64,000 nucleotides of DNA from Candidatus Poribacteria bacterium. GTDB lineage: Bacteria > Poribacteria > WGA-4E > PCPOR2b. This document shows positions 9,600 to 60,868 of the stretch, in pieces. Under the pieces are notes generated by a model. That model did no database searches, was not told the origin of the DNA, and worked only from the letters and a program-made list of their open reading frames with translations. The DNA lies in contig OZ242326.1 in the NCBI GenBank assembly GCA_965208325.1, positions 4,192,001-4,256,000 of the forward strand, given 5' to 3'. Made by a program: the position numbers and the translations under genes. Numbering within the stretch: position 1 is the first letter of the stretch; every line of letters begins with the position of its first letter.

Positions 9600-10960
9600 G
9601 GAATGGAAGGGATTGCGATTTTCGATACTGTCTGAACTGTGATTTTTGTGATTAAATGATGGGCTGTGATTAAGGGAGCGTAAGAGGATTTGGGAGTTGA
9701 TGGGGTTGCGGGAGGTTACAAAAGCGTTGGGTTTCGCTCGATTCATCGGGATTCGTGCGCGTTTAGATTGACGGGTGTGGTTGGTTTTGATGGGCGGTTA
9801 TTGGGTGAATCCGCTCTACCCAACCTACAAAAACTTTGCGGACGGCATACGGAGTATGCCTGCTACTTTATCGCGGCTGGAAGCCGCTCCCACAGGGGTT
9901 CTTGTGATTAAATGATGGGATGTGATTAAGGGAGCGTATAAGGATTTGGGAGTTGATGGGGTTGCGGAAGGTTACAAAAGCGTTGGGTTTCGCGCGATTC
10001 ATCGGGATTTGTGCGCGTTTAGATTGACGGGTGTGGTTGGTTTTGATGGACGGTTATTGGGTGAATCCGCTCTACCCAACCTACAAAAACTTTGCGGACG
10101 GCATACGGAGTATGCCTGCTACTTTATCGCGGCTGGAAGCCGCTCCCACAGGGGGAGGGTCGCGATTCGGAGATGACTCGTACAGGGGTGGGAGTATTTG
10201 TAGAAGGGACTTCCGAATCCCGACGCAAGCCGACCTACAGGAGTTGTCTGAACTGTGATTCGTGTGATTAAATGATGGGCTGTGATTAAGGGAGCGTATA
10301 AGGATTTGGGAGTTGATGGGGTTGCGGGAGGTTACAAAAGCGTTGGGTTTCGCTCGATTCATCGGGATTTGTGCGCGTTTAGATTGACGGGTGTGGTTGG
10401 TTTTGATGGACGGTTATTGGGTGAATCCGCTCTACCCAACCTACAAAAACTTTGCGGACGGCATACGGAGTATGCCTGCTACTTTATCGCGGCTGGAAGC
10501 CGCTCCCACAGGAGGAGGGTCGCGATTTGGAGATGGCTCGTACAGGGGTGGGAGTATTTGTAGAAGGGACGTCCGAATCCCGACGCAAGCCGACCTACAG
10601 GAGTTGTCTGAACTGTGATTCGTGTGATTAAATGATGGGCTGTGATTAAGGGAGCGTATAAGGATTTGGGAGTTGATGGGGTTGCGGAAGGTTACAAAAG
10701 CGTTGGGTTTCGCTACATTTATTGGATTTTGTGTGCAGTGAGGTAGACATGGTGGTTCGCTAAAATGAGCGGTTATTGGGTGAATCCGCTCTACCCAACC
10801 TACAAAAACTTTGCGGACGGCATACGGAGTATGCCTGCTACTTTATCGGGAGGGTCGCGAATCGGAGATCGCTCCTACAGGATACAGTGTTGGGTTAAAG
10901 AAACGGAGTTTTGAAGAAAAAACTCCGTTTCAATGAAAAAAACTCCGTTTCAAGGAGACG
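9600..10960. repeat. Modular REP-like repeat cluster with a 360-bp tandem unit
   Basis: GTTGGGTTTCGC arms at about 9727, 9982, 10342 and 10702 (spacings 255/360/360), with GCGGACGGCATACGGAGTATGCCTGCTAC and ATCGCGGCTGGAAGCCGCTCCCAC modules. Confidence 0.95.
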
Positions 10961-10992
10961 CGCCGTTTCGTGTAAGGTCACGGTTCTTTTCC

Positions 10993-11021
10993 TTGCCGTG
11001 GGGCGGGTATTGTGCTATAAT
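10993..11021 (+). promoter_or_regulatory. Sigma70-type promoter for smpB
   Basis: TTGCCG-17 nt-TATAAT with TGn extended -10. Confidence 0.65.
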
Positions 11022-11029
11022 TTAAGCGG

Positions 11030-11503
11030 GTGAAAGTCGTGGCTGCACCAATCAAAATAATCACTGTTAATCGGAAAGCACGCCACGAGTATCACTTGCA
11101 GGACCGGTTTGAAGCGGGGGTTGTGCTGCAGGGCACGGAGGTAAAATCCATCCGCGCCGGCAACTTCAGCTTGACCGATAGTTACGTGCGGATTCGAGAC
11201 GGCGAGACGTTCCTGATTGATGCGCACATTCCCGCTTACACGCACGGAAACCGCGAAAACCACGAACCGAAGCGGGCGCGCAAGTTGCTTTTGCATCGGC
11301 GTGAAATCAAGAAAATCTCGGAAAAGACGCATTCGTCCGGGATGACAGTTGTGCCGACCAGAGCCTATTTTAGCGGCGGGAACGTCAAGGTTGAAATCGC
11401 GGTGGCGCGCGGCAAACAAGACTACGACAAGCGCGAAGATATGAAAAAGGATGCGGATAGGCGCGCAATCCAATCGTACAAACAGCGGTATTCAGCGCGA
11501 TAG
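11030..11503 (+). CDS. smpB: SsrA-binding protein SmpB
   Basis: NRKARHEY, EAGVVLQGTEVKSIR, RKLLLHRREI and GKQDYDKR motifs. True start may be GTG 11039. Confidence 0.97.
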   Translation: MKVVAAPIKIITVNRKARHEYHLQDRFEAGVVLQGTEVKSIRAGNFSLTDSYVRIRDGETFLIDAHIPAYTHGNRENHEPKRARKLLLHRREIKKISEKTHSSGMTVVPTRAYFSGGNVKVEIAVARGKQDYDKREDMKKDADRRAIQSYKQRYSAR

Positions 11504-11548
11504 CAGTGCAAGAACGGGTTTTGACCGCCGGGTTCTTGCGCACGATTT

Positions 11549-11904
11549 GGGGGTGAAAAGGTTTCGACGGAAGTAGATGAGATGAAGGTTGCATGCCGAG
11601 GTCTCCGCAGGCCTCGTTAAACAGGCGGAACAAACACAACTGCCGATTACGAAGAATTGGCTCTAGCCGCTTAAAGCGGCTACGTTCGGTTTGCCTGCGG
11701 CCCGTCGGGTTAACCGGGCGACGAGATACGGGCTGTGCGATTTGCTTGTTCTTCAGGGGCAACCCGCGAGATTTACTGGGGATAGCTAATGCGAATCCGG
11801 CATAAGGGAGCCGCTGCGGCGAAGAATTTAAACTTATGCTAAGCATGTAGTAGCCTTTGTTGAAATGCCTCCGGACGCGGGTTCGATTCCCGCCACCTCC
11901 ATCA
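11549..11904 (+). ncRNA. ssrA: tmRNA; tag peptide (A)ADYEELALAA
   Basis: 5' GGGGGTG pairs with 3' CACCTCC including a G3-U wobble; GGTTTCGAC and GGGTTCGATTCCC T-arm present; tag ORF at 11642-11674; lies directly after smpB. Confidence 0.96.
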
Positions 11905-14529: not shown

Positions 14530-14875
14530 TGGGCGATCAACTGAGCGAATAGCGAAGGCGATAGTCTTGTCTTAATTGTGAGACGTTTCGGTTGCCGGTT
14601 GTCGGTCGGAACGATAAATACGATTTGAATGGAAAAAACAAGAGGGTTGTTTGGAATTCGGGAGGTGTTGGTGTTTGAAAGTCGTTTTGGTTTCCGGAGG
14701 TTACAAAAGCGTTGGGTTTCGCTCCAATCATCGAATTTTGTACGCGGTTAGGTTGACGGTGCGGTAAGTTTTGATGGACGGTTATTGGATGAATCCGCTC
14801 TACCCAACCTACAAAAACTGGTGCGATCAAAAAACCGAGTTTTGAAGAAAAAACTCGGTTTTAAGTGAAGGTTGC
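14530..14875. repeat. Modular repeat cluster
   Basis: GATCAAC..GAATAGCGAAGGCGATAGTCTT module, a fixed-core element at 14711-14811, and an AAACCGAGTTTT-GAAGA-AAAACTCGGTTT hairpin. Confidence 0.9.
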
Positions 14876-23088: not shown

Positions 23089-24131
23089 GAAAACGTACTT
23101 CCACTGAGATACCGGTAGCGGTGCCCACGTTAACCAAAAAGAATTTTGAATCGGATCAGGATGTCCGGTGGTGCCCGGGCTGCGGAGATTATTCGATACT
23201 GTCTCAAACGCAGCGAATTCTCCCGGACCTCGGCGTCCCGAAGGAGGATTTTGTGTTCATCTCCGGGATTGGATGTTCGAGCCGGTTTCCGTACTATATG
23301 AACGCGTACGGTTTTCACACGATTCACGGGCGCGCGCCGACGGTTGCGGCTGGCGTCAAGGTCGCCCACCCGGAACTTTCGGTATGGGTGATTACGGGCG
23401 ACGGCGATGCGTTATCGATCGGCGGCAACCACTTTATTCACCTAATGCGGCGCAATTTCGACATCAACGTCCTGTTGTTCAACAACCAGATTTATGGATT
23501 GACGAAGGGGCAGTATTCGCCCACGTCCGAACAGGGGAAGACAACCTTCTCCACGCCGATGGGGTCGCTTGATAACCCGTTCAATCCGATCAGCCTTGCA
23601 TTGGCGTCGGGCGCGACATTTGTCGCCCGCTCGCTGGATAGGGATCCGGAACATTTACGCGGCGTCATCAAGGCGGCGTTTGAACATAAGGGCACGTCGT
23701 TTGTCGAGATTTACCAGAACTGCAACGTGTATAACGACGGCGCGTTTTTCTCCTTTACGGAAAAGGAGACAAAAGCCGAGAACACGGTGTTTTTGGAACA
23801 TGGAGAGCCGCTAGTTTTTGGCAAGGACCGCGACAAGGGTATCCGCCTGAACGAGTTTCAACCGGAGGTTTTTTCCCTCACCGAGGGCAACTATTCGCCC
23901 GATGAGCTCATCAAACACAACCAGTACGCCGAGAATCCAACGCTCGCGTACTTCCTTGCGCGGATGAGCGTGATACCGGATGTGCCGCATCCGATAGGTG
24001 TGTTTCGGAGCATCAAGCACGCCTGCTATGAAGATTTGATGGCGCAGCAGGTTGAGACGGCGAAGCGGCAGCGCGGAGAAGGCGATCTTGAGGCGCTGCT
24101 CAATGAAGCCGATACCTGGCGCGTCGAATAG
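23085..24131 (+). CDS. korB: 2-oxoacid:ferredoxin oxidoreductase beta subunit
   Basis: WCPGCGD, SGIGCS, HGRA, GDGD TPP motif and YGLTKGQYSPT; ATGA overlap with korA. Confidence 0.95.
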   Translation: MRKRTSTEIPVAVPTLTKKNFESDQDVRWCPGCGDYSILSQTQRILPDLGVPKEDFVFISGIGCSSRFPYYMNAYGFHTIHGRAPTVAAGVKVAHPELSVWVITGDGDALSIGGNHFIHLMRRNFDINVLLFNNQIYGLTKGQYSPTSEQGKTTFSTPMGSLDNPFNPISLALASGATFVARSLDRDPEHLRGVIKAAFEHKGTSFVEIYQNCNVYNDGAFFSFTEKETKAENTVFLEHGEPLVFGKDRDKGIRLNEFQPEVFSLTEGNYSPDELIKHNQYAENPTLAYFLARMSVIPDVPHPIGVFRSIKHACYEDLMAQQVETAKRQRGEGDLEALLNEADTWRVE

Positions 24132-24229
24132 GGTGCGGCAAGGAACCGCAACGCATTTGTTCGCCCTCAAGATACACGCATGACCGCGCGGGCTATTTGC
24201 TCCCACCCTGAACCGGTAAAATTGTCAAT

Positions 24230-25276: not shown

Positions 25277-25279
25277 GTT

Positions 25280-25960
25280 GGAAGGTAGTGAATTGCGATT
25301 GGCGATGTTGTCTGAACTGTGGTTTTTGAGATTAAATGATGGGCTATGATTAAGGGAACGCATGAGCATTCGGACGTTGATAGGGTTGCGGGAGGTTGCC
25401 AAAGCGTTGGGGTTATAAGGGAGGTTTTTGGTACGATTAAGAAACCGAGTTTTGAAGAAAAAACTCGGTTTCAGATAAAGTATTACAAGAGCTGTAGGTG
25501 GTCGTAGGGGCGGGGTTTCCCCGCCCATTGATGAGCCGCATGCGGCGAATTCCCGACCATACAAAAATTATGTGGGAACAAAGGGTTGGGGAACCCAACC
25601 CCTACGAACGATCGCATTTTGAATGTCGTAAGGTTTCGCAGTCCGCCACGTGAAATTGGCCGTTAATTGGTGAAGACCGCTCTACCCAACCTACAAGAGA
25701 TGCTACATTGCGGACGGCACACGGAGTGTGCCTGCTACTTTATCGCGGCTGGAAGCTGCTCCCACAGGGGGAGGGTCGCGAGTCGGAGATCGCTCCTACA
25801 GTGAGATGATTTCTTTTAATTATAGCCTATCATTTAATCAAATAAATCACAGTTCAGACAGTTTTTGAAATTTGAATGCGATGAAGAAACCGAGTTTTGA
25901 AGAAAAAACTCGGTTTCAGATAAAGTAAAGGTCGCCATTCAGAAGCCGCTCCCATAGGGG
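25280..25960. repeat. Modular repeat cluster between the two permease genes
   Basis: Contains GTAGGGGCGGGGTTTCCCCGCCC, GGGTTGGGGAACCCAACCCCTAC, CCGCTCTACCCAACCTAC, GGCACACGGAGTGTGCC and two AAACCGAG hairpins. Confidence 0.92.
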
Positions 25961-25974
25961 GTTAGGGGATTGGT

Positions 25975-26910: not shown

Positions 26911-26936
26911 CGTCTCACCGCGCACCTACTTCCATT

Positions 26937-27977: not shown

Positions 27978-27994
27978 GATTGTGTCTCCTGGTT

Positions 27995-28606
27995 TTTGTA
28001 GGTTGGGTTAAGCGGAGTAAATGAGAGACGCGATAAATGTCGAATGGATATCGGTATTTGAATACGTGTGGTAATTGTTAGAGCGGAGCGAACCCGACGT
28101 TTTTGAGAGGTTTCGGTTGCCGGTTGTCGGGCGGAATGATAAATACGATTTGGAATAGAAGAAACAGAAGGGTTATTGGGAATTCGGGGCGGTATTTGTG
28201 TTTGGTAATCGTTTGGGTTGCCGGAGGTTTTAAAAGCGTTGGGTTTCGCTCGATTCATCGGATTTTGGACGTTGGTCGGTTTACCGCAACGAAATGTAAA
28301 ATTGTATGTCTATTCGTGTTTTCCGCTCTACCCAACCTACGAGAACTACAAGAACTGTAGGTGGCCGTAGGGGCGGGGTTTCCCCGCCCATTGATGAGCC
28401 GCATGCGGCGAATTCCCGACCATACAAAAATTATGTGGGAACAAAGGGTTGGGGAACCCAACCCCTACGAACGACCGGATTTTGAATGTCGTAGGGTTTC
28501 CCAGTATGCCACGTGAAATTGTACGTTAATTGGTGAATTCCGCTCAACCCAACCTACAAGAACTGCTACATTGCGGACGGCACACGGAGTGTGCCTGCTA
28601 CTTTGA
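27995..28606. repeat. Modular repeat cluster
   Basis: Inverted pair of fixed-core elements (27998-28098, 28238-28340), followed by a GTAGGGGCGGGG/AACCCCTAC doublet and a GGCACACGGAGTGTGCC module. Confidence 0.92.
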
Positions 28607-28623
28607 GGTGAAGCATTTAGGCG

Positions 28624-29655: not shown

Positions 29656-29710
29656 GGTATTTCTCTGCTCCTTCCGGCTATGGTGCGTCCAGATTGCCTG
29701 TGCAAATCTT

Positions 29711-29730
29711 TGTGGATAATTTGTGGATAA
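29711..29730 (-). promoter_or_regulatory. Two tandem perfect DnaA-box 9-mers
   Basis: TGTGGATAA at 29711-29719 and 29722-29730 (reverse complement of TTATCCACA). Confidence 0.6.
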
Positions 29731-29790
29731 CTCGCCAAGTGTGTGTGATTAACGCCGCGGCGCGTTAATGCCAGTTGTCCCCATTATACC

Positions 29791-33384: not shown

Positions 33385-34285
33385 TTTGTTTTTGTAGGTT
33401 GGGTAGAGCGGAGTAAATGAAAAACGCGAACAGTGTCGAATGGATAATGGTATGTGAATTTGATTGAAAATGTTTAAGAAATAGCGAAACCCAACGATCA
33501 ACCGACCGAATAGGGAGGGCGATAGTCTTGTCTTAATTTTGAGACATTTCGGTTGCTGGTTGTCGGTCGGTAATTGTTTAATGTGTGTGGCAATAGAAAA
33601 AACAGAAAAGTTGCTGGGGAATTAATGACGGTGTGGGTGTTTGGGAGTCATTCAGGATGGGAGAGGTTTTAAAAGCGTTGGGTTTCGCTCCATTCATCGG
33701 ATTTAGTGCGTGGTTGAGTTGACGGGGGTGGTTCGTTAAATTGGGCGTTTATTGGGTGAATCCGCTCTACCCAACCTACAAGAGCTGTCCGTGGTCGTAG
33801 GGGCGGGGTTCCCCCGCCCATTGAGCAGCCGGAGGCGGCGAATTCCCGACCATACCAATATGATGTGTGAACAAAGGGTTGGGAAACCCAACCCCTACGA
33901 ATTATCGAATATTGGATGTCGCTAGGTTTTCTAGCGCGCCGCGTGAAATTTTACGTCATTTGGTGCAGACCGCTCAACCCAACCTATAAGAACTGGTACT
34001 TTGCGGACGGCACACGGAGTGTGCCTGCTACTTTTCGTTATGAAGAAACCGAGTTTTGAAGAAAAAACTCGGTTTCTAGCGGCTAAAAACTCGGTTTCAA
34101 GCAGCCAAAAAGAGAATTTTTGAAACCGGGTTTTGGGGGGAGGCGTATATTTGCGTACAGTGTCAGGTTTAGGATGGAAGTGTCGATTTTTGGTGGGTTA
34201 TCGAAGAAACCGAGTTTTGAAGAAAAAACTCGGTTTCAAGCGGCCAAAAACTTGGTTTCTAGCAGTCAAAAATCGGTTTTTGGTA
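33385..34285. repeat. Modular repeat cluster
   Basis: Same order of modules as 27995-28606, plus AAACCGAG hairpins with partial ~21-bp echoes. Confidence 0.92.
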
Positions 34286-40184: not shown

Positions 40185-40520
40185 GTATTTTCTTTGTAGG
40201 TTGGGTAGAGCGTATTTTCTTTGTAGGTTGGGTAGAGCGGTATTGTTAAAACATGTGAGCTAATTCGGATATGCTTGGATTGATTGATAGCGTTCAAAAT
40301 ACGATTGATTGTAGCGAAACCCAACGCTTTACGAACGTCTCGAATCTCCAGAGACTCAAAAGCGTTGGGTTTCGCTACGCGAATTTTGATGTCGTCATCG
40401 ATCAGATATCTGAACCGTTTTCTCCACAGGAACGGTTGTGAAATTACCCGCTCTACCCAACCTACAAAAGCATTTTTTTTAGATGTGTTGTATCGCGGCT
40501 GGAAGCCTCTCCCACAGGGT
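40185..40520. repeat. Inverted pair of fixed-core elements plus GTGG-footed hairpin
   Basis: GTAGGTTGGGTAGAGCGG-72 nt-AGCGAAACCCAAC, a short linker, then the inverse copy with a 71-nt core. Confidence 0.92.
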
Positions 40521-46700: not shown

Positions 46701-49700
46701 CATTGGATGAAAATCCGTACGTGCTGCGCGCGGTGGCGGTTGACGACACTGGCGCCCGGTATGCATCGTCGGAAGAAATGTCACAGAGTTTCTCGGTGGA
46801 CAACATTGACGATGTGCCGCCGCTGACAGGTACGGCGATTACCCAAATTTCGGACGCTGCGGGGGCGATTGAGCCAGTTGACGGCGTGTATACGGTCGGC
46901 GGTATCGTTGACGAGAGCGTTGACTCGCCGTTCGGATTGGTGGTGTCCGTGCCGATAGCCGATCCGATTACATATAACCGGGTCGATCTGCTGATTAACC
47001 GCCGCAATGAGGATGGAAGTCTCGGCGACATGGTCAGCGAGATGCAGGCGGAGATGGGCGAGGAGAATTACACCGCTACGGTTGATGTATCAGCCCTAGA
47101 GAACGGTGCGTATTTCTTCCAAGCTTTGGCAATGGACGAGGTCGGGAATCAAGAGGTGCGAGACATCGCATTCGCCGCTATGATTCATGTAGCCAACTTC
47201 ATTCCGCCGCCGGTTATCGATCTGAGCGGGCAGACGTTGAGCAGGCAGCCGGTTGAGGGAAGCACGGTTGAGGAGTTTACGGAAGCGTATCCGGGCGGAT
47301 TCCCAGTATCCGGGGATTACGTATTCACGGCGGGCGGCATTGCGTTGAACGCCGGCGATATCGACGTCCTAGTCGATGGGGCGTCCGCGAACGCAATGGG
47401 CGCACTCACGGTCGATACGATTGAAGAGGGGGCGTCTAGCACGTTTATGTTGACGCTCGATACGACCATGTATGCGTTGGGCTATCACGAGACCGCGCTG
47501 CAGATTACGAAGCGGAACGGCAGCATCAGTTTCCCGTTGGCGCCGCTGTTTGTTGACAATGAAGCGCCGCAATTGGCGGTTAATTCGCCGATAGCGAACG
47601 ACGAGGTGAGTGCATTGCCGACGACGCGCGCGGCGTATCATGACGGCGCAGGCGCGGGGCTTGAACTATCGTTCGTTACCATTAGCTTGATGAGGTTGAC
47701 GCCGCCGGATATGATGGCGGTCGAAATCAACATGAGCGAGGTTTTGACGGATTTGACCGACCTTGTGTATACCCGCCGTGCGGATATGCTGCCGGCTGGC
47801 GTATACCGGGTGATGGTTACGGTGACCGATATCGTTGACAATACGAGCGAAGCATCGGCTGACTTTACGGTGGTGACGACGTTGCCGTCGGTGGCAATCC
47901 GATCGCCGAATTCAGGCGAAATTGTCGGCGTGTCACAGCCGCTCATCAGCGCGGAATTCTCGGGCATCGGCGCGAGTGTGACATCGTTCACGATTGACGC
48001 CGGCGAGGAAATCACAGATGCGGCAATTAGTGGAAACCGGCTGGAGTATACGCCTGGCGTATTGACGGACGGCGACCATACGGTTGCGATTATGGTTACG
48101 GATGGCGAAGGCAATACGGCTGACGACAGTGTGACCTTCACGGTAAAGACTGCGGATACGACGCCGCCGTTGATAACGGAAGCGAGTCCGCAAGGGGTTA
48201 TTAAGTCTGCGTCCGCTATGTTGTCGGTTGCAGCCTCTGACCCGGAATCCGGAATTGCCAATGTATCGTATGCGCTTGACGGCGGTGACGCCGTTGACGG
48301 CATGACCCGCGAGGTTAGCGGATTGGAGTCGGGGACGCACACGGTTATGGCGGTCGCCACGAACGGTGCCGGTCTGCAAAGCACGTTCAGTTGGACGTTC
48401 ACCGTGGAGTTGGATACGACGCCGCCGGTAATTTCCGCAGTTGCGCCTCAGGGCATTGTTAAATCTGCCGAGGCGGCATTGTCGGCGACAGTGACCGACG
48501 AACAGTCGGATGTCTCGAACGTGACGATAGCGCTTGACGGCGGCAGTGCTGAGTCTGTTGCAGTTGACGGCGGCGGTGTGAGCCGTAACGTCAGCGGACT
48601 AACGCCGGGCACGCATTCGGTAACGGTTGTTGCTACGAGCGGGGGCGGTTCCTCGACGCATACCTGGACGTTCACGGTCGAGTTGGATACGACACCTCCT
48701 GTCATTTCCGAGGTTGCACCGCAGGGCGTCATCAAAGAGGCGTCCACTACGATTTCGGTGGCAGTCGGCGATGAGCAGTCGGATGTAACGCGTGTCAACA
48801 TTGACGTAGACGGCACCGGCGCAAGGGCTGTTTCAATACGGGAAGGCCGTGCTAGCCGGGTGGTTAGCGGGCTTACTCCGGGAACGCACACCGTGACGGT
48901 GACGGCAGAGAGCGCCGGCGGTACGTCGAGGCATACGTGGAAATTTACGGTTGAATTGGATACGACACCGCCCGTCATCTCGGCGGTTTCACCGCAAGGG
49001 ATTATACGAGAGGATTCGGCGCGGATTTCAGCCGCAATCGGTGACGAGCAGTCGGATATCACGAACGCGACGATTGCGATTGACGGCGGTTCCGCTGGAA
49101 CCGTGACGGTGACGAACGGACGTGCGAGCCGCACAGCCAGAGGCCTGGAATCGGGTACGCATACAGTGACGGTAACGGCGACGAGCGCCGGCGGAACTTC
49201 GACGCATAGCTGGGCGTTTACGGTTGATTTGGATACGACCCCGCCCGAAGTTTCGGCGACATCGCCGCACGGCACAGTGCTTGTCGAGAATCCGGAAATC
49301 TCAGTCGCGGCGAGCGATAACCGCGGCGGACCGCTTGCGATTAGAATTTCGGTCGAAGACAGCGCAGGGGTTCGGGTCGGCGGCGATGCCGAGGCGAGCG
49401 ATGACGGAAGGTCTGCGACCTTTGTCCCGTCGGCGGGGCTGACCACCGGGACGTACTCCGTCAATGCAACTGTCAAAGACGAGAGCGGGAACGAGTCCTC
49501 GGCGAACTGGAGTTTCTCGGTAATTATCGATACGACACCGCCGAGCGTCACGGGCGTAACGCCTGAAGGCGAAGCGCGGGTCTCCGAAGAACGCAGACCG
49601 ATGATAACGGCGAGCTATACCGACGCCGGTGCGGGGATTGATATGAGTTCCGTGGTGATGATGCTCAACGGAAACCCGATCGTGCCAACTTCGGTTTCGG

Positions 49701-50137
49701 CGACTCAAGCGGTTTACATGCCGCCGGCAGACCTCGATTTTGGCCGTCACACGGTTCGGTTGGAAGTCTCCGACATTGCGCAGCCGTCTGCAAACACGGC
49801 GGTGCACGAATGGAGTTTCGTGCTTGAGGACGGCAAGGGGCCAATCTTCCGCGGCGTGCTGCGGAATTACCCGAATCCGTTCAAGGATAGTACGACCGTT
49901 TCCTTCACGCTGGCGCGTGAAGCGACGCTGACGATTGAAGTTTACGATGTCACGGGGCGGCTGGTTCGGGTCTTGGCGCAAGACGAGGTTCGAGAAGCCG
50001 GTCATAATGAATTTCCGTGGGATGGTAAGACATCGGCAGGCGACGTGCTGGCTCGCGGTGTGTACTTCGCTCAGGTTATGGTGACAAGCGAACCGAGGCC
50101 AGAGGTAATTGTCCTGAGAATGGCGCTGTTGCGCTAG
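40757..50137 (+). CDS. Giant secreted adhesin-like protein (invasin/Big_1-like, PKD and DTTPP Ig repeats) with FlgD/T9SS-like C-terminal domain
   Basis: Signal peptide; LPADGTSTSTITV and ITDNGDGSYT; PKD motif WDFGDG...HAY..PG.Y.VTLTVTD; repeated DTTPP...GTHTVTV...WTFTV; C-terminus NYPNPF...YDVTGRLVR...WDGK...GVYF...MALLR. Confidence 0.9.
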   Translation: MLNIMSRGRLARYLVLVTLASGLVMSGAQSVQAQSVFVFTLSGTLMDGDGNALVGYTVEAPMAEASTFGIGTSVTDEQGNYSILYSDLNRSVSVGDVFEITVKDPDGNVVSTSSYTISAEDIAPRIGTGSHNIQLTSSGLTVALGENSLPADGTSTSTITVMIVDADGEPVSGAPPTVTSEKGSIGEITDNGDGSYTVEYTAPALVISESTTDTITVSSDTTGDSESVTVMLRPVPTVITISVEPSAFTAGAGETGAISISVNRGGNAVADAQLSLGVSRADGGADAGAASDVTNDGGGAYSASYTPANTVGRVNITATDAVSGASERASVSVNAGPAAAIMVSAAPPTVSSNGSAVLTAMVMDGSGNGVGGLAPSGSAESGTVGEFSEGTTAGSYSATYSAGTVEAEGTDTVTVSVGDISGTVEIGLTPVPPKEVQILVISGTIYKQDGTGPVSGVNVEVTVGGMASQTTTSGSNGGYSVTIVNPGGVAGKTGDMVTVVVTDDTGERGRDESVLTNEELGDDTAANIDRDVNTDILARTNALVVSGAVFREESTIPIDDVFAITVMNTTRGTAVSGSTDGNGMFNLTFFGTDVVAETNDEIVVTASREGGEWSSPAHSLSSAEVEDGRATVNVPTDIKASTNTLVVTGTVYFEDGTIAVGAGVTVTSMNAGKGQEANGTTDADGNYSVTFLSTEGLVAETADIITVTAVHGDKGDGTAEHTLTSAEVDAQRAQVDVVTSVKAFTSSLVVTGTAYYEGSMIPVGPGNAVTVVNNANGMEASGMTDENGTFSVTFFNPDGTVAETGDTLTVTVDGGENGSGSADHTLAASEVDAQRAAVNVPTNIKAVSPTFLVSGTVFLEDGISGAPAGLTVKVVNETRGINASGTTVEGGGYVVTFLETEAAAVKTADVLNLDVYVLAADETSVGETSITLTSADVVANRRDGVDITTSLVADPTHAFLVDGMVIDPAGNVVGQGVNVRVTLGGHDPMALETYANGGFSGTYFNSDSPVASVYDNLIIQAVNRSNGDSAYMSMQLASHHVLAQRIEITVNLIPDNESPVAVSRVSQRFLDTNEETTFDASHSTDSPLNSQLIDTYVWDFGDGTTGSGITATHAYSKPGRYLVTLTVTDLAGNFGTAEREIWVSTVRLGGISVNTRHAREVIDKIIGLAIAGTDVAIAKGGSDAVLDMIRGNPALQAAVIAAIGDTLPPGLIPAQLLADDLPLIFEQYENIDLENFGNAVTARVGPEGGILGSATPGLTRVVTGDKLDLYLATPRADVGHVTFRFDEVTRDAEEVIDSLPHTFHLEEEQAILLLPSWPGSGSDGAFAAVTLMLASEELPSAYHNLISRNAWSYRDTSDYEPASMSPRMINGKRVWDVQVDIDPGKIYYYYYAVELAYPIQTQLGAELTQYAMPDPRNLQLQDRGLVEALFTPELQAAIAPLLNPVIAGILSGQPATVDDVAAGLTPESLFEILGAILNAAAPLVEQMAQTLDSQMISVFTVPLVNEAQSLWHTSIDLSAFADGMHTIDANAFDSEGVQIDNRPVFGKTFMLDRAAPAYSVSVAPGENSSMYMRDDGVLISTGLPPVGDGSPMASLLLSASPNGDVSDVAEGLYQIIPYSDDPAVQGSQSWVNILSSEMAPVFQGLTLDDFTAFLTTFPDLLTLNAPAVNGGVPAQMAMMIRGANGDPALIVGEYGVRVAARDTVFNMSTDTAPIRLNIVPPDPDQAMVVRISLGDCNGDGDTDDLYETGAPADMILFSDTPNVMVTAEVTKQVHPITSILFQYRTGDAEWQDIGMLEGEMVAGAVEGSQYDMAWSIENLGVMIQAGMPVMLRAVVTNALSISDDEATEAALNVKDHPCPIEAEIHALNHTVNDRNPDSNAPRGMISLMAVTRELTSPHTASVVFEVRRMQGEEWQAIGEVAIADSVVEEAIVEAIEEALEEVVEGEESAVFVPTRRVWALEFDSTAIDDTIMVGDAAERDMTLDENPYVLRAVAVDDTGARYASSEEMSQSFSVDNIDDVPPLTGTAITQISDAAGAIEPVDGVYTVGGIVDESVDSPFGLVVSVPIADPITYNRVDLLINRRNEDGSLGDMVSEMQAEMGEENYTATVDVSALENGAYFFQALAMDEVGNQEVRDIAFAAMIHVANFIPPPVIDLSGQTLSRQPVEGSTVEEFTEAYPGGFPVSGDYVFTAGGIALNAGDIDVLVDGASANAMGALTVDTIEEGASSTFMLTLDTTMYALGYHETALQITKRNGSISFPLAPLFVDNEAPQLAVNSPIANDEVSALPTTRAAYHDGAGAGLELSFVTISLMRLTPPDMMAVEINMSEVLTDLTDLVYTRRADMLPAGVYRVMVTVTDIVDNTSEASADFTVVTTLPSVAIRSPNSGEIVGVSQPLISAEFSGIGASVTSFTIDAGEEITDAAISGNRLEYTPGVLTDGDHTVAIMVTDGEGNTADDSVTFTVKTADTTPPLITEASPQGVIKSASAMLSVAASDPESGIANVSYALDGGDAVDGMTREVSGLESGTHTVMAVATNGAGLQSTFSWTFTVELDTTPPVISAVAPQGIVKSAEAALSATVTDEQSDVSNVTIALDGGSAESVAVDGGGVSRNVSGLTPGTHSVTVVATSGGGSSTHTWTFTVELDTTPPVISEVAPQGVIKEASTTISVAVGDEQSDVTRVNIDVDGTGARAVSIREGRASRVVSGLTPGTHTVTVTAESAGGTSRHTWKFTVELDTTPPVISAVSPQGIIREDSARISAAIGDEQSDITNATIAIDGGSAGTVTVTNGRASRTARGLESGTHTVTVTATSAGGTSTHSWAFTVDLDTTPPEVSATSPHGTVLVENPEISVAASDNRGGPLAIRISVEDSAGVRVGGDAEASDDGRSATFVPSAGLTTGTYSVNATVKDESGNESSANWSFSVIIDTTPPSVTGVTPEGEARVSEERRPMITASYTDAGAGIDMSSVVMMLNGNPIVPTSVSATQAVYMPPADLDFGRHTVRLEVSDIAQPSANTAVHEWSFVLEDGKGPIFRGVLRNYPNPFKDSTTVSFTLAREATLTIEVYDVTGRLVRVLAQDEVREAGHNEFPWDGKTSAGDVLARGVYFAQVMVTSEPRPEVIVLRMALLR

Positions 50138-54423: not shown

Positions 54424-55455
54424 TTAGGCGCTTAATGTGTGTATTTCCGGGTCGTTAATGTGATCCGAAATTTTCTGGTCAATCGCATTCACCTGTTCGG
54501 TGAGTTTACGGTGTGCCGCACTCATTTCTTCGCGGAGGTCGTCTATCCGACTGTTGGTATCGTCAATTCGGCTGATAGTCTCATCAATCCGACTGTCAAT
54601 ACCATCAATGCGTTTGTCTAGGAAATCACGCATGACTGTCGACGCCGCATACATTTCTTCCTTGGTTGGCACATTCGCAAACTTCGCATCAAGCAGCTTT
54701 TCAAAATGCTCAGATCTCGCAATTGACGATTTATCGAGTTGTTCAATGCGATCATCTGAAGATTTTTCGAGCTGGGCAATGAGTTTGTTTGTCGATTCTT
54801 CAGAGTGTGCAATCCCAGCATTTAAAGACTTATCGAGTTGTTCGATGAGTTTGTTTGTCGATTCTTCAGAGTCTGCAATCCGGTCATTTAAAGATTTATC
54901 GAGATGCGCAATGAGATTGTTTGACGTTTCTTCATAGTGTTCAATGCGATCATTTATAGATTTGTCGAGTTGCTCGTAGCGGGCATTTAAGGAATTTACG
55001 AGCAGTTCAAAGCGATCATTTATGGATTTGTCGAAATGCTCGAAACGCGCATTTATGGAATTTTCGAATATTTCCAAGCGATCATTTATAGATTTGTCGA
55101 CATGCTCGAAACGAGCATTTATGGAATTTTCGAATATTTCAAGCCGATCATTTATGGAGTTTTCGAATATTTCAAATCGCGCATTTAATGAATTTTCAAA
55201 TATTTTCAAGCGATCATTTATAGATTTGTCAACATGCTCAAATCGAGCGTTTATGGAGTTTTCGAATATTTCCAAGCGATCATTTATGGATTTGTCGAAT
55301 ATTTCTAAGCGAGCATTTAAGGAGTTTTCAAACTGTTCAAACCGTTTATCGAGGCGTCCGAAAAAGAAGTTTAGTACGCCGATAACCAACCCGCCGCCCG
55401 CAACGATCGGCACCGCAATTGCCGTGATGATTTTGACAACGTCGATCCAACTCAT
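54424..55455 (-). CDS. Membrane-anchored coiled-coil protein with about 20 tandem 11-aa repeats (Bdr-like)
   Basis: N-terminal TM helix; INDRLEIFENS/INARFEHVDKS repeats; PTKEEM. GGAGG RBS supports ATG 55455; TGTGGTATAAT upstream. Confidence 0.82.
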   Translation of the reverse strand: MSWIDVVKIITAIAVPIVAGGGLVIGVLNFFFGRLDKRFEQFENSLNARLEIFDKSINDRLEIFENSINARFEHVDKSINDRLKIFENSLNARFEIFENSINDRLEIFENSINARFEHVDKSINDRLEIFENSINARFEHFDKSINDRFELLVNSLNARYEQLDKSINDRIEHYEETSNNLIAHLDKSLNDRIADSEESTNKLIEQLDKSLNAGIAHSEESTNKLIAQLEKSSDDRIEQLDKSSIARSEHFEKLLDAKFANVPTKEEMYAASTVMRDFLDKRIDGIDSRIDETISRIDDTNSRIDDLREEMSAAHRKLTEQVNAIDQKISDHINDPEIHTLSA

Positions 55456-55554
55456 TCCGATTACCTCCATTTCATGATATTATACCACAATGCCGCCCAA
55501 AATGTCGAGTTTTCGTATGTTGGGTTGAGGGATTGACGGCGTATGTGTTGAGTG

Positions 55555-56600
55555 CACCGCGATTCGGAGATTGACCGTACGGGTTGTTGGCAGAGGTTGA
55601 AGGTAGTGTGTTGGGAAGGAGAGTAGACTGTCTGAACTGTGATTTGTGTGATTAAATGATGGGCTGTGATTGAAGGAATTAACTGGTGCTGGCGGCGATG
55701 TGGGTGTTTGGGAGTCAATTGGGATGGGAGAGGTTTTAAAAGAGTTGGGTTTCGCTCGATTCATCGGGTTTTGTGCGTGGATAGATTGACGATGGCGGTT
55801 CGTTTAATTGTGCGGTTTTTGGGTGAACTCGCTCTACCCAACCTACAAGAGCGACTGCTACTTTGCGGACGGCACACGGAGTGTGCCTGCTACTTTATCG
55901 CGGCTGGAAGCCGCTCTCACAGGGGCTGGTTTTTGGAAGGTGTGAGGGGATTGGGATTGGTGATGCTGTCTGAAATGTGATTTGTGTGATTAAATGATGG
56001 GCTGTGATTGAAGGAATTAACTGGTGCTGGCGGCGGTGTGGGTGTTTGGGCGTCAACTGGGATGGGTGAGGTTTTAAAAGAGTTGGGTTTCGCTCGATTC
56101 ATCGGGTTTTGTGCGTGGATAGATTGACGATGGCGGTTCGTCTTATTGGTCGGTTTTTGGGTGAAACCGCTCTACCCAACCTACAAGAGCGACTGCTACT
56201 TTGCGGACGGCACACGGAGTGTGCCTGCTACTTTATCGCGGCTGGAAGCCGCTCCCACAGGGGCTGGTTTTTGGAAGTTTGGAGGGGATTGGGATTGGCG
56301 ATGCTGTCTGAACTGTGATTTGTGTGATTAAATGATGGGCTGTGATTGAGGGAATTGATTGGTGTTCGCGGCGGTGTGGGTGTTTGGGAGTCATTTGGGA
56401 TGGGTGAGGTTTTAAAAGAGTTGGGTTTCGCTCGATTCATCGGGTTTTGTGCGCGGTTAGATTGACCGGGGCGGTTCGTTTAATTGTGCGTTTTTTGGGT
56501 GAATCCGCTCTACCCAACCTACAAGAGCGACTGCTACTTTGCGGACGGCACACGGAGTGTGCCTGCTACTTTATCGCGGCTGGAAGCCGCTCCCACAGGA
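55555..56600. repeat. Three tandem 338-bp modular units
   Basis: GCGGACGGCACACGG anchors at about 55865, 56203 and 56541. Confidence 0.95.
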
Positions 56601-56650
56601 GAAGGAATTTGGCAGGTTGGGTTTGCAGTTGTCGAAACGAGGTATGATTT

Positions 56651-58588
56651 TTGAGTAAGTTCACTCTAGTCGAAAAGCAAAAGGCGAATGACATCCCACT
56701 CCGAATCTTGGTGATTGGCATCTTCTTCGCTCTGGTAAATGCGTATTGGGTTTCGACAAATGATTTGCTGATTGGTCTCGTTCACAACTATATGTCGCTG
56801 TTCAGCAACGCGGTTTTCACGCTGTTTCTACTGGTGTTGCTGAATTCCCTTCTAAAGAAATACCTTCCGAGGCTTGCATTTAGAGCCGCCGACTTACTGG
56901 TGATTTATGTGATGACCGTAATGGTTACGACCTTTGCGGGGAATCGAATGAACCGGTTTGTCGGACTGCTCTCCCACCCTTACTGGTTTGCCACGCCGGA
57001 AAATGACTGGCGAAACTTGTTCTGGCGATATATCCCGCCTTGGTTTACGGTCAAGGATGAGCATGCGTTGAGCGCCCTTTATCACGGCGATACGACGTTT
57101 TTTAGCCGCGCAAACTTTATGCCTTGGTTGGGGCCGATTGTCTATTGGTCGGCGTTTCTGATTGTGTTGTACGTCGTCCTGATCTGCATCAATACGTTGA
57201 TACGCAAGCAATTTACGGAACATGAGAGGCTGACCTACCCCGTTACCTGGCTGCCGCTGGAGATGGCGAAGGACATCACGTTTTTTCTGAAGAATAGGCT
57301 GATGTGGGCGGGTTTCGGCATTGCAGCGGCAATTGGCATTCTGAATGGACTGAGCGTGTTATTTCCGTCGCTTCCGGATATTCCTGTCGGGTGGACATCA
57401 ATTCATTTCCGGGAGAAACCGTGGAGCTACATGGGCGGCACCCGAATTTCGTTCCAGCCGTTTGTGATTGGGCTTTCGTATTTCATGCCGCTGGATCTCG
57501 CCTTTTCTGCTTGGTTTTTCTATTTCCTAAAGAAATTCACGCAGTTGACACTTGGGGCGACCATGGGTTGGCGCAACCTTTACTTCCCCGAACAGGCTCA
57601 AGGCGCATGGAGCGGGTTGGGTATTCTGGCGCTCTGGGTCGGACGCAGGCATCTAAAGCGGGTTTTCACGCAGGTATTCACGCGCAAGCGGGTTATTGAC
57701 GACGCTAAAGAACCGATGTCGTATCGGACCGCGGTATTTGGCGTCGTCGCCGGCATAATTTTTCTCCTGTTTTTTGCGTACAAAGCCGGGCTTTCGTTGT
57801 GGATTATTTTGGTGTTTTTTGTAATTTACGTATGCAGCGCCCTCGGTGTGAACAAGATTAGAGCCGGGCTTGGTGTAGCGGTGCATGAGTTGCTGTGGGT
57901 CGACCCCGGTGAGACGATGGTTAGCTCGATGGGAACACGGACGTTTGGCGCACGAAATCTGACGGTGCTTTCATTTCTATTTGTGCTGAATCGGGATCAG
58001 CCCGGCCACCCGATGCCGAACCAACTGGAAGCGTTTCGCATCGGCGAGCAGGCTAACATCCATCCGAGAAAACTGGCCTGGGCGATAATTTTAACGTGCG
58101 CCATCGGGATACCGGTGACCTTTGTGATATTTTTCAACCATCTGTATCAACAGGGGGCTGAAAATTCGACGGGTACGATTTTCATGCCCATAGGGAGAGA
58201 AGGGTTTACCCAGCGGCTGCAGATTTGGCTAACGAATCCGACGGGGCATGATTATGCGGCGGCGGGTTTCATGGGGTTTGGCTTCGCTATGACGGGGATT
58301 CTGTTAGTTATGAAGATGCGGTTTCTGTGGTGGCCGTTTCACCCCGTGGGTTATGTGTTGGGATCGAGCCCGGCGGAGATGATATATATCTGGGTACCGG
58401 TGCTGATTAGTTGGTGCCTGAAGTTTGCCATCCTTCGGTACGGCGGGTTGCGGGCGTATCGCAGCGCATTGCCGTTTTTTGTGGGTTTGATATTAGGGGA
58501 TTATTCATTGGGATGCTTTTGGAGTATTGTCGGGGCGGTGTTCAGGATTCCGGTGTATAATATGGGTTGGCATCCGGTGACATCGTGA
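56651..58588 (+). CDS. Polytopic membrane protein, DUF6785/DUF6784-like (possible transporter)
   Basis: 645 aa with many TM helices; ATPENDW, EHERLTYP, WWPFHPVGY and PFFVGLILGD motifs. Confidence 0.75.
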   Translation: MSKFTLVEKQKANDIPLRILVIGIFFALVNAYWVSTNDLLIGLVHNYMSLFSNAVFTLFLLVLLNSLLKKYLPRLAFRAADLLVIYVMTVMVTTFAGNRMNRFVGLLSHPYWFATPENDWRNLFWRYIPPWFTVKDEHALSALYHGDTTFFSRANFMPWLGPIVYWSAFLIVLYVVLICINTLIRKQFTEHERLTYPVTWLPLEMAKDITFFLKNRLMWAGFGIAAAIGILNGLSVLFPSLPDIPVGWTSIHFREKPWSYMGGTRISFQPFVIGLSYFMPLDLAFSAWFFYFLKKFTQLTLGATMGWRNLYFPEQAQGAWSGLGILALWVGRRHLKRVFTQVFTRKRVIDDAKEPMSYRTAVFGVVAGIIFLLFFAYKAGLSLWIILVFFVIYVCSALGVNKIRAGLGVAVHELLWVDPGETMVSSMGTRTFGARNLTVLSFLFVLNRDQPGHPMPNQLEAFRIGEQANIHPRKLAWAIILTCAIGIPVTFVIFFNHLYQQGAENSTGTIFMPIGREGFTQRLQIWLTNPTGHDYAAAGFMGFGFAMTGILLVMKMRFLWWPFHPVGYVLGSSPAEMIYIWVPVLISWCLKFAILRYGGLRAYRSALPFFVGLILGDYSLGCFWSIVGAVFRIPVYNMGWHPVTS

Positions 58589-58604
58589 TAGGGGTGGTAG
58601 GATT

Positions 58605-58897
58605 GAAAAGCGTTGGGTTTCGCTCGATTCATCGGGTTTTGTGCGTGGATAGACTGACGATGGCGGTTCGTTTAATTGTGCGTTTTTTGGGTGAATCCGC
58701 TCTACCCAACCTACAGGAGCGACTGCTACTTTGCGGACGGCACACGGAGTGTGCCTGCTACTCTATCGCGGCTGGAAGCCGCTCCCACAAGGGATGATTA
58801 TTGGGAGGTAGGAAAGAAATGCGATTTTCGATGCAACCGAACCTACAGGAGCGACTGCTACTTTGCGGACGGCACACGGAGTGTGCCTGCTACTTTA
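58605..58897. repeat. Partial copy of the 338-bp unit
   Basis: Near-identical to the matching parts of the 55555-56600 units (e.g. 56420-56598), in the same orientation. Confidence 0.92.
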
Positions 58898-58998
58898 GCT
58901 AGGAAAGCAGCGGAAATGATTTTGGATGTGGTAAACCGCGTTGGAATATCTCACGTTTACGGGTTTGAGAATCTGAAAGTAATGAGGAGAACCAAGTA

Positions 58999-60093
58999 AT
59001 GAAACGAATCAAACAACTTGTTTATGCAGCAGTCAGCTTGTGCATGGCAGCGGGATTGTGCTCGCCTGTTTTCGCCGGGGCTGGGCGAACCGGCGCACAA
59101 ATTCTCGACCTTGGCGGCGGGACGCGTGCGGCGGCGCTGGGCGATGCCTTTTCTGCGGTTGACGGCGATGTCACCGCAGCGTTTTGGAATCCAAGCGGCT
59201 TGGGAATAATCCAAGACACACAGGCTGCGATTTCGTATATGGACTATAGTCAACTTTTTGGTGAAGCGAGTGCGGGGTTATACTACGCTTTTTTCGCCGG
59301 TGCCATGCCGCTCGGTGCGTCGGGAACGCTCGGCACAACGCTTCAAATACAGGGGCAAGGCGAGGTTGCAATTACGACGGATTCACCGCTAATAGAGCGG
59401 TATGAGAACCTTGGGACGAATTGGGCATGGACGGTGTCTTACGCGGACATGTTGGCAAACGGATTGTCAGCGGGCATCAGCGGTAAGATAATTCAGATGA
59501 AATTGGGACGTTACGCTGGGCGCGCTTACGCGATTGACTTCGGCGCACAATACAATCTCCAGCTTCCAGATTTCATGCCGCCGGTGCGCATTGGCGCTGC
59601 TGTACAAAATTGGGGCACGGAGATTGCTTTCATTGACGCAAATCAGAGCGACCCGCTGCCACGTAAGTTCCGGCTGGGAACCGCGGTAACAATCTATGAA
59701 GCAGGGTATCATGACCTACGGCTCATCGGCGATTTGACTGCGTTTATTGATAAGCTGAAAGAGGACGACGAAGAAGGGGTACAGGCGTTTATTGAGGCGA
59801 ATCCGGAGGTCACACGCGATCAACTTCTCGCCGACCGAGGCGTTGGCAGGCATGCGTTTGAGTGGCGGCACATGCAGAAGAGCGTTGGCATAGAGTATTG
59901 GTTGAGTAACCTGCTGGCGCTGCGAGTCGGTTACAAAACCGAACCCGGCATAAACCGCCCGGATTTTTCAGATCATATCACGTACGGTTTGGGTGTGCGT
60001 TTGTTGAATTATCAGTTTGATTATGCCCGCGTGCCCGGCGGTGGACCGAACAATCAGCGCCTCAATGTGTTTGCGTTGGTGTTGCGGTTTTAG
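58999..60093 (+). CDS. PorV/PorQ family outer-membrane beta-barrel
   Basis: Signal peptide, ILDLGGGTRAAALGDAF...FWNPSGL, AIDFGAQY, QSDPLP, GIEY, FDYA and terminal LVLRF. Confidence 0.87.
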   Translation: MKRIKQLVYAAVSLCMAAGLCSPVFAGAGRTGAQILDLGGGTRAAALGDAFSAVDGDVTAAFWNPSGLGIIQDTQAAISYMDYSQLFGEASAGLYYAFFAGAMPLGASGTLGTTLQIQGQGEVAITTDSPLIERYENLGTNWAWTVSYADMLANGLSAGISGKIIQMKLGRYAGRAYAIDFGAQYNLQLPDFMPPVRIGAAVQNWGTEIAFIDANQSDPLPRKFRLGTAVTIYEAGYHDLRLIGDLTAFIDKLKEDDEEGVQAFIEANPEVTRDQLLADRGVGRHAFEWRHMQKSVGIEYWLSNLLALRVGYKTEPGINRPDFSDHITYGLGVRLLNYQFDYARVPGGGPNNQRLNVFALVLRF

Positions 60094-60104
60094 GGATTGT
60101 CGTT

Positions 60105-60868
60105 TATCCTTGGGTTTCGGAGAAGACTGTCTGACCGGCACGTAATTTTCGCACGGTAGTTATTAGCAGTTACCCGCTTAACCCAACCTACAAGAACTGA
60201 AATCAGGAAAGGCGACGGAGCGGGTTGGGATCTGGGACCATTAAAAATTTTCAATGGTTGTTTTGAATGCGGGAGGCTTTAAAAGCGTTGGGTTTCGCTA
60301 CATGGATTTTACGAATGCAGCATGCCGGAGTTTTAACGTTTAGTGGGTGTAGTAACGGCATTAGGGTTATCCGCTCTACCCAACCTACAGAAACTGGAGA
60401 AACCTTAGGCAAGACTATCGCCTTCGCTATTCGCTCAGTTGATCGTTGGGTTTCGCTACATGGATTTTACGAATGCAGCCTGCCAGAGTTTTAACGTTTA
60501 GTGGGTGTAGTTACGGCATTAGGGTTATCCGCTCTACCCAACCTACAGAAACTGGAGAAACCTTAGGCAAGACTATCGCCTTCGCTATTCGCTCAGTTGA
60601 TCGTTGGGTTTCGCTACATGGATTTTACGAATGCAGCATGCCGGAGTTTTAACGTTTAGTGGGTGTAGTAACGGCATTAGGGTTATCCGCTCTACCCAAC
60701 CTACAGAAACTGGAGAAACCTTAGGCAAGACTATCGCCTTCGCTATTCGATCAGTTGATCGTTGGGTTTCGCTGCATGGATTTTACGAATGCAGCATGCC
60801 GGAATTTTAACGTTTAGTGGGTGTAGTAACGGCATTAGGGTTATCCGCTCTACCCAACCTACAGAAGC
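60105..60868. repeat. Tandem 158-bp units (about 3.7 copies) of fixed-core element + AAGACTATCGCC module
   Basis: TTGGGTTTCGCT at about 60288, 60446, 60604 and 60762. Confidence 0.95.

Follow-up and report, generated by a model that had tools for sequence, protein, structure and literature searches.

The window analysed here is a stretch of 64,000 nucleotides (nt) from a Candidatus Poribacteria bacterium (assembly GCA_965208325.1, contig OZ242326.1, positions 4,192,001 to 4,256,000), and it holds many copies of a repeat of about 100 nt, in which two conserved arms enclose a core of nearly constant length and highly variable sequence. This element is probably a repetitive extragenic palindromic (REP) sequence of the Escherichia coli type, the non-autonomous partner of a group-2 REP-associated tyrosine transposase (RAYT, or TnpAREP), with the tip of the hairpin replaced by a loop of about 71 nt that is free in sequence and fixed in length. 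Together the arms form the base of a GTAG-tagged REP hairpin, one half each, and the core is its apical loop. The length of this loop appears to be under stabilising selection, and it is left unexplained by the present knowledge of REPs.

Arms, cores and the base of the hairpin

The left arm GTAGGTTGGGTAGAGCGG is found at 25 sites in the window with up to three mismatches, against 0.03 expected by chance, and the right arm AGCGAAACCCAAC likewise at 25 sites with up to two mismatches, against 2.3 expected. Pairing of arms on the same strand gives 18 complete elements, with cores of 71 nt in 8 copies and 72 nt in 10. The genome of the window (G000) is a single contig of 4.71 Mb, and the sequencing runs that contain the stretch are labelled sponge metagenome. 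Extraction of arm pairs from the whole genome, as proposed in the initial annotation, revealed no broad distribution of lengths: 186 of the 193 left-to-right pairs lying up to 400 nt apart enclose cores of 68-73 nt (one of 68, seven of 69, 16 of 70, 116 of 71, 38 of 72 and eight of 73 nt; mean 71.1, standard deviation 0.8). The complete unit is 100-104 nt long, and the two halves of its lower stem are 84 nt apart. Under a looser definition, G000 has 472 heads of the form GTAGGTTGGGT, and AACCCAAC follows 81-85 nt on in 215 of these (83 nt in 112); about 21 of the 472 have the right arm 10-16 nt on, making a short classical hairpin of 32-33 nt, and some carry a different repeat module of 34 nt within the loop. 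By a crude map of open reading frames (ORFs), 177 of the 186 copies lie between ORFs, in spacers of the tandem (107), convergent (36) and divergent (34) types.

The left arm opens with the GTAG foot, followed by GTTGGGT, A/T-G/A-A and GC(G); the right arm reads (A)GC, G-A/T-A and ACCCAAC, and the two heptamers pair. The 18-nt consensus of the left arm is exact in 114 of the 186 copies and, by construction, within three mismatches in all of them. The 7-bp lower stem GTTGGGT/ACCCAAC, which ends at T11, has a predicted pairing probability of 0.75-0.84 in lineage-weighted copies. Above it lies a purine-rich mismatch bulge, A12-G13-A14 opposite unpaired G-A-A, and then an upper stem of 2 bp; the terminal 7-bp stem and this upper stem make up the sole helix common to the copies. 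The upper stem covaries, being A15 with a 3' T in a sample of copies from two related genera (g11 and g5) and G15 with a 3' C in G000. Among the 75 sequences of that sample, TGAACGG is found with AGTGAA in 29, TGAACGA in 8 more, and TGAGCGG with AGCGAA in 8. The dinucleotide CT occurs within 6 nt upstream in 128 of the 186 copies in G000 and within 6 nt downstream in 127, against a 6-mer background of 0.23. The termini of the element are inverted over just 7-9 bp, and the flanking TCTT (79/186) and GCTT (110/186) are conserved motifs, not copy-specific duplications.

Nearly all of this is familiar from the REPs and bacterial interspersed mosaic elements (BIMEs) of E. coli and their TnpAREP (PDB structure: 4ER8; PMC3479197; PMC8266576), with which the element shares the GTAG foot, the 7-bp lower stem to T11, the bulge above it (A12A13 in the E. 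coli geometry; PMC8266576) and the CT at the borders, as well as the hundreds of intergenic copies in repeat mosaics and the single-copy RAYT gene flanked by the repeat. In the part of the structural account available to us, TnpAREP acts as a monomer, makes contact with GTAG and with the lower end of the stem, and cleaves at CT dinucleotides on both sides (Messing 2012, PMC3479197). The determinants of the E. coli group are given as GTAG, the lower stem (T11, G32) and the bulge, and in the sections accessible to us, selection of ligands by exponential enrichment (SELEX) picked no loop positions and the role of the upper stem-loop was structural and non-specific (Corneloup 2021, PMC8266576). 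These findings account for invariant arms with a loop whose sequence drifts freely. The difference lies in the upper part: E. coli REPs are 29-37 nt long, with a short upper stem and loop, whereas here a 2-bp stem closes an unstructured loop of about 73 nt in a unit of 102 nt. The element thus departs from the usual size of a REP (20-40 nt, with a short apical loop), while it shows the other features of GTAG/group-2 REPs that were tested by sequence.

Association with RAYT genes

The initial annotation had described the repeat as REP-like and linked it to RAYT/TnpA-REP nucleases, and a comparison of related genomes bears this out. Each of the six best RAYT matches in 41 relatives (195-202 bits; genera g1 and g5) is flanked on either side by long-form elements; at the other RAYT loci examined, a long-form or short hairpin copy lies nearby in just 2 of 24. 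Orthologues that are 78-81% identical in genera g14 (G078) and g11 (G044 and G047) are also flanked on both sides; the nearest copies at the G044 and G047 loci are in inverted orientation, their GTAG ends facing outwards. The element therefore flanks the orthologues of this one RAYT at nine of nine loci (G001, G003, G011, G012, G018, G023, G044, G047 and G078), which come from four genera and three families. The flanked RAYT matches E. coli TnpAREP (4ER8) with an E-value of 1.8e-39. Inverted doublets of the element are seen beside RAYT genes, and its short hairpin form also adjoins a RAYT gene (locus L015).

Two RAYT-like genes are present in G000 itself. The better one (130 bits to NF047646; C1:1955881-1956294, loci L001/L031) is flanked by a different, classical REP of 23 nt, GTAGGCGCGGCATCTTGCCGCGC, which has 252 copies in this genome at up to three mismatches. 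The flanked RAYT of the relatives and the RAYT of G000 are 23% identical.

Fixed length of the loop

A pattern made of GTAGGTYGGGT followed by AACCCRAC was searched for in 151 genomes of the order, and reversed-pattern controls gave 0 everywhere. Spacings of 79-87 nt account for about 4,753 matches in 111 genomes. Shorter spacings, 49-78 nt, give about 733 matches, many of which are spacings of 77-78 nt, short-REP doublets, or loops holding another module, and longer ones, 88-117 nt, give about 197, mostly composites; that is, about 4,750 copies fall in a 9-nt window of length and about 930 are spread across 60 flanking lengths. At 24 loci from genera g11 and g5, 78 of 117 heads have spacings of 79-86 nt, with a mode of 83 nt that is the same as in G000, so that two sampled families agree in it, and the cores have no alignable sequence in common. 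Within a sample of the phylum (176 genomes), matches occur in three families of one order, out of its four; a single genome outside these also matches, and its rows, among those listed, look like short-REP composites. Within the order, the form with the long loop seems to be derived.

The neutral non-coding DNA of G000 and of its closest relative (G002) differs by 72 gap openings and 546 substitutions (0.13), with gaps of up to 12 nt, and spacers in tandem arrays have indels of up to 52 nt. In a minimum spanning tree of the cores, 19 of the 91 edges at 78% identity or more have gaps, each of them only 1-2 nt. Five pairs of cores of equal length call for compensating insertions and deletions, which, in one example, reduce 21 ungapped mismatches to 10. 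Indels thus occur in the cores but are compensated, so that the net length is restored. The earlier suggestion that length is held under constraint while sequence drifts agrees with the narrow spacing, both genome-wide and across the order, and with these compensated indels.

Divergence of the cores

There are 171 distinct cores among the 186 copies, with less than 60% identity in 10,907 of the 14,535 pairs and 23 clusters at 60% identity. The initial annotation had seen several lineages with little mutual similarity, and this holds as far as most pairs are concerned; the lineages are, however, not unrelated. Representatives of the clusters are weakly alike in the forward orientation only (z mostly 0-8, about 0 for the reverse complement), and ungapped, lineage-weighted cores of 71 nt have biases at particular positions (A9 0.88, A10 0.80, G33 0.71, T35 0.75, G38 0.70, A46 0.73 and G70 0.83). 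Similar patches are seen in the independent sample from genera g11 and g5: positions 27-31 of the element are rich in A, TTTC lies around 52-55, and AAA some 18 nt before the 3' end. The forward-only similarity and the register-specific biases mean that the cores are diverged homologues in register and not captured inserts. Inversion of cores relative to the arms was considered as the source of the A/C-rich and G/T-rich classes of cores, and was rejected, as z for reverse complements is near 0.

Turnover and strand bias

The syntenic 78 kb of G002, the genes of which are about 92% identical, contain 8 copies, against 18 in the window, and at one intergenic site common to both genomes the core lineages differ. 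Assembled contigs of four sequencing runs over window positions 24000-41000 break at the repeat-rich spacers, and give no usable presence/absence joints for single elements. In one genome of genus g11 (G053; e.g. C2:504371-506852 and C4:356628-382818), dozens of nearly identical copies of a single core lineage are dispersed through the genome, a pattern suggestive of a recent burst.

The orientation of the element goes with the local GC skew of coding DNA: where the skew is positive, 53 loci have the minus orientation against 14 with the plus orientation, and where it is negative, 35 are plus against 17 minus (Fisher p 6e-7). The family of the classical REP GTAGGCGCGGCATCTTGCCGCGC in G000 has a strand bias in the same direction. 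Such a bias fits a process tied to replication. Only local skew was used, and a replichore map based on cumulative GC skew was abandoned, because the profile flips sign repeatedly. In G000 these repeated reversals of the skew run along the whole contig, and no more than 1.5 Mb separates the cumulative minimum from the maximum, a pattern that suggests many inversions or assembly joins; gene orientation still tracks the local skew.

Proposed mechanism and the evidence against it

If the element is the partner of a group-2 RAYT, the enzyme would bind GTAG, the lower stem and the bulge of the folded single-stranded element, and would cut at the CT dinucleotides enriched at both borders. Selection on sequence would then act on the arms only, and the loop would drift to saturation. 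Stabilising selection on the length of the loop would mean that something measures the distance between the arm halves, or else needs weakly conserved positions to be in register; the candidates for such positions are the A-rich patch about 27-30 nt from GTAG, a central TTC motif, and the A-rich patch some 18 nt before the 3' end. In G000, where the cognate RAYT was not found, recent multiplication has been by local tandem duplication only, yet the arms are still kept.

Several observations weigh against this explanation. Most directly, the cognate RAYT was not found in G000 (tblastn; best matches 23-29% identical), nor, over the class cut-off, in the closest relative G002, and these are the two genomes with the most copies (197 and 161 pattern matches, respectively). 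Two more distant RAYTs of the same class (loci L019 and L020, 177-181 bits) and the one at locus L066 (45% identical) are unflanked by the element. The genome G053 mentioned above, which is 93% complete, has many near-identical dispersed copies and no RAYT orthologue at E <=1e-20 with the protein of L015 as the query. Compensation in the lower stem is thin: at its third pair the sample of 75 sequences has 61 T-A, 9 T-G, 3 C-A and 2 C-G, and the change to GTCGGGT/ACCCGAC, tried as proof of the lower stem, was set aside as weak, with only two double changes against nine T-G and three C-A. The strand bias sets the GTAG strand opposite the G-rich strand, which is taken as leading, and we could match this direction to no published rule for REPs. 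The gap rate per substitution in the cores is lower than in neighbouring spacers by only about half (0.043 vs 0.082, p 0.065), and the case for a ruler rests on net length and not on the absence of indels.

The state of the family in G000 is a further difficulty. No core is more than 93% identical to that of a copy over 10 kb away (0/186 at 95% or more), whereas 57 of the 186 reach at least 95% with a copy less than 10 kb away. Because such identity is confined to near neighbours, recent growth is by tandem duplication (in the window, with repeat units of 158, 338 and 360 nt), and there is no sign of recent transposition. In 51 adjacent pairs of tandem paralogues, the arms nonetheless differ at 19 of 1,581 positions (1.2%), against 318 of 3,625 (8.8%) in the cores and 161 of 3,500 (4.6%) in the flanks. 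Whatever maintains the arms thus need not be the RAYT. The chief argument for a role at the level of the host is that the arms persist in a genome where a cognate RAYT was not found, and the mechanism proposed above leaves this open.

Alternative explanations

The strongest alternative, which we consider unlikely but far from negligible, is that the element is a protein-binding or structural DNA unit of REP origin, kept by the host independently of any RAYT, and that the footprint of a protein, e.g. a nucleoid or single-strand-binding protein, sets the distance between the arms. This explanation takes in the conservation of the arms relative to cores and flanks in tandem paralogues, and the lack of dispersed pairs above 93% identity, which indicates no recent transposition; it also agrees with the same arms and the same modal length in three families, and with the weak register-specific loop positions common to these families. 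The fast turnover of content between G000 and G002, where even a shared site has different core lineages, speaks against it, as do the presence of copies in all types of intergenic regions and in tandem arrays with no tie to particular genes, and the bursts of near-identical dispersed copies in other genomes, which are the behaviour of selfish elements. An A/T periodicity of 10-11 nt was also looked for in the loop and not found, the top periods being 6.1 and 8.8 nt.

A further reading, which seems to us somewhat less likely again, makes the loop (about 73-84 nt) a true molecular ruler. The weak 7-bp stem would close only when a protein of fixed footprint, e.g. a tetramer of the single-strand-binding protein, occupies the loop, and this protein-closed REP hairpin would have been kept by the host after the loss of the RAYT. 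The single-strand-binding protein tetramer has a wrapping mode of about 65 nt. Host keeping of such a unit, if true, would explain arms at 1.2% divergence where no cognate RAYT was found.

It is very improbable that the element is a gene for a small structured RNA of about 100 nt, with paired ends and a variable middle, as the initial annotation had offered as one possibility. A terminal stem is predicted in most copies, the length is fixed, and one position of the stem has G-T combinations (9/75), all of which would suit an RNA. The cores, however, fold no better than shuffled sequences (mean z -0.3, with z < -2 in 6 of 106 cores) and more weakly than random intergenic 71-mers (-4.4 vs -6.1 kcal/mol). 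No conserved helix was found in the core, where the best 4-bp diagonal pairs in 0.57 of the lineage-weighted sequences; a search of Rfam returned a transfer-messenger RNA (tmRNA) only and no family matching the element. In tandem contexts, 57 copies have the same orientation as the neighbouring genes and 50 the opposite one (by the crude ORF map), so there is no orientation bias relative to genes. A promoter within the element was sought in positions 55400-61000 of the window and rejected, since this region has 3 promoter-like sites against 5.2 expected and none of them is in an element. The occurrence in tandem arrays and next to a transposase-like gene is also out of keeping with an RNA gene. 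Two other candidate contents of the core were discarded, namely tRNA-like structures (ARAGORN gives the tmRNA only) and a coding sequence (for any one reading frame, at most 57% of the copies are open).

Still less credible are neutrally decaying copies of one old miniature inverted-repeat transposable element, the narrow length of which would come from a low indel rate and the arm conservation from ascertainment. The cores do descend from a common ancestor, their indel rate per substitution is not significantly below that of spacers, and the copies were ascertained by their arms. Yet the cores are saturated, most being 40-60% identical, and at 0.04-0.13 indels per substitution several indels are expected for a pair of lineages, while the standard deviation of length is 0.8 nt; in addition, the modal length is identical in other families and compensating indels are seen. 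As for ascertainment, detection based on the core added just a few dozen copies with degenerate arms to the 186, and by our own arithmetic more than 100 arm differences are expected in the 51 tandem pairs if the arms change neutrally at the rate of the cores, against the 19 seen, so that ascertainment cannot explain the conservation.

The least plausible reading is the carrier of variable inserts raised in the initial annotation, here taken as capture through length-measuring uptake, in the manner of CRISPR spacers or integron attC sites, which would produce conserved ends, with GTTRRRY/RYYYAAC-like heptamers, around a middle of fixed length and variable sequence: the cores are homologous in register (forward z up to 8, none in reverse) and share position biases, core-like BLAST matches outside the called copies, among those listed, all lie beside a complete or degenerate arm or are themselves another repeat module, a stretch holding two copies has no match in phage and plasmid collections, and the order of the heptamers is the reverse of that in attC, with a centre that is not self-complementary.

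Elements and other features in the window

Ten core lengths had been counted by hand in the initial annotation, and all ten are right: nine are recovered by arm pairing, and the tenth is a variant element at 27998..28098 (+), with the left arm GTAGGTTGGGTTAAGCGG, a 71-nt core, and a 12-nt variant of the right arm, AGCGAACCCGAC, after exactly 71 nt. Nine complete copies come in addition to those listed there (9982, 10342, 55744, 56082, 56420, 58612, 60445, 60603 and 60761).

The first group of elements, all on the minus strand, begins with a complete copy with a 72-nt core at 9726..9828, which is unit 1 of a tandem mosaic array with the next units 256 and 360 nt on. It is followed by complete copies at 9982..10084 (72-nt core, right arm with one mismatch), 10342..10444 (72-nt core) and 10702..10803 (71-nt core, of a lineage that differs from its three neighbours). 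At 9829-10260 and 10804-10880 the element alternates, in BIME-like mosaics, with other hairpin repeats that have a GTAG or GTGG foot (e.g. GTAGCAGGCATACTCCGTATGCC... and CCTGTGGGAGCGGCTTCCAGCCGCGAT). Just past this first mosaic, at 11549-11904 (+), lies the tmRNA gene, detected both by ARAGORN and by Rfam (RF00023, 183.6 bits), with the tag peptide ADYEELALAA. A complete element with a 71-nt core is found farther on, at 14711..14812 (-).

Three left arms on the minus strand, each with a 71-nt core, have the right arm replaced by another GTAG hairpin (GTAGGGGTTGGGTTCCCCAACCC in the first of them): 25606..25694, 28469..28557 and 33899..33987, the last with an ATAG foot. The initial annotation had noted the replaced arm in all three, and a different GTAG hairpin does follow after exactly 71 nt. 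The three are, however, paralogues of a single unit of 184 columns, 91% identical with both flanks included, and therefore represent one event of arm replacement and not three independent ones. Complete elements in the same part of the window are at 28238..28340 (-, 72-nt core), 33394..33495 (+, 71-nt core of a G/T-rich lineage) and 33677..33779 (-, 72-nt core).

Between two very long ORFs on the plus strand, 34723-40095 (1,790 aa) and 40757-50137 (3,126 aa), lies a spacer with an inverted doublet of elements. The members of this doublet, placed tail to tail, are complete copies at 40223..40325 (+, 72-nt core) and 40364..40465 (-, 71-nt core), and an orphan left arm at 40196..40213 (+) stands immediately ahead of the first.

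The remaining copies are on the minus strand. An array with a period of 338 nt consists of three complete elements with 72-nt cores (55744..55846, 56082..56184 and 56420..56522, units 1 to 3), and a further complete element with a 72-nt core lies at 58612..58714. The left arm of a variant copy, with a shorter loop ending in ...GAAACCCAAGG, is at 60174..60191. The last array, with a period of 158 nt, has four complete elements with 71-nt cores (60287..60388, 60445..60546, 60603..60704 and 60761..60862, units 1 to 4).

A second repeat module of about 34 nt (GATCAACYGA..CGAATAG..GGCGATAGTCTT) is seen, for example, at 60389-60444 in the window, and at C1:1796075, 2336015 and 3036231 in G000. It follows the right arm of many elements and also forms runs of tandem copies; some REP loops contain it instead of the 71-nt core. 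In genus g8 (e.g. G054:C32:74529-74608 and G129:C18:9115-9238), the same REP stem occurs as a classical hairpin of about 30 nt (GTAGGTCGGGTTGAGGCACGAAACCCGAC), in inverted doublets.

Comparison with other repeat families

The element resembles REPINs (Bertels and Rainey 2011, PMC3116915, as far as the portion available to us describes them), which are also non-autonomous, RAYT-tied units of about 100 nt, with highly conserved ends and persisting, diverged populations; the inverted doublets, e.g. the one at 40223-40465, add to the likeness. A REPIN, by the same account, consists of two inverted REPs that pair along their length, whereas a single unit of the present family has one GTAG, arms that are alike only over 7-9 bp, and an unpaired middle.

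Loops that vary among members and can far exceed the usual 2-4 nt are known from the families GTAG-14 (Bradyrhizobium) and GTAG-15 (Di Nocera 2013, PMC3733652). Their loops, however, are 9-27 bp long, the long ones being self-complementary, and the part of that survey available to us describes no loop of constant length and variable sequence. In the literature searched, we found no REP with a sequence-variable loop of constant length of about 73-84 nt, the longest REP loops given in the accessible part of the same survey being the self-complementary ones of 27 bp (PMC3733652), and the opinion expressed in the initial annotation, that the architecture is undescribed, can be upheld to that extent. 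A literature search with the arm sequences yielded unrelated primer matches only.

The attC sites of integrons are recognised as folded single-stranded DNA, and have short conserved ends in inverse repeat around a variable centre, with the consensus end boxes RYYYAAC ... GTTRRRY. The element is like attC in having such ends and such a centre. It differs in the order of its heptamers, which is GTTGGGT ... ACCCAAC on both strands, i.e. with the polarity reversed, and in having no cassette genes between copies; and whereas the centres of attC sites vary in length and are self-complementary, the centre of the element has a fixed length and is unstructured.

Implications

REPs are among the most abundant repeats of bacteria, and their recognition and spreading by RAYTs are still open questions. 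The family described here is a natural experiment in this respect: in thousands of copies, across three families of sponge-associated bacteria, the top of the hairpin has given way to a long loop held to within 1 nt of its length. Since its sequence varies freely while its length does not, some component of the system would seem to measure length. The finding that the REP arms are kept under selection where the cognate RAYT was not found bears on the question of whether REPs are beneficial to their hosts.

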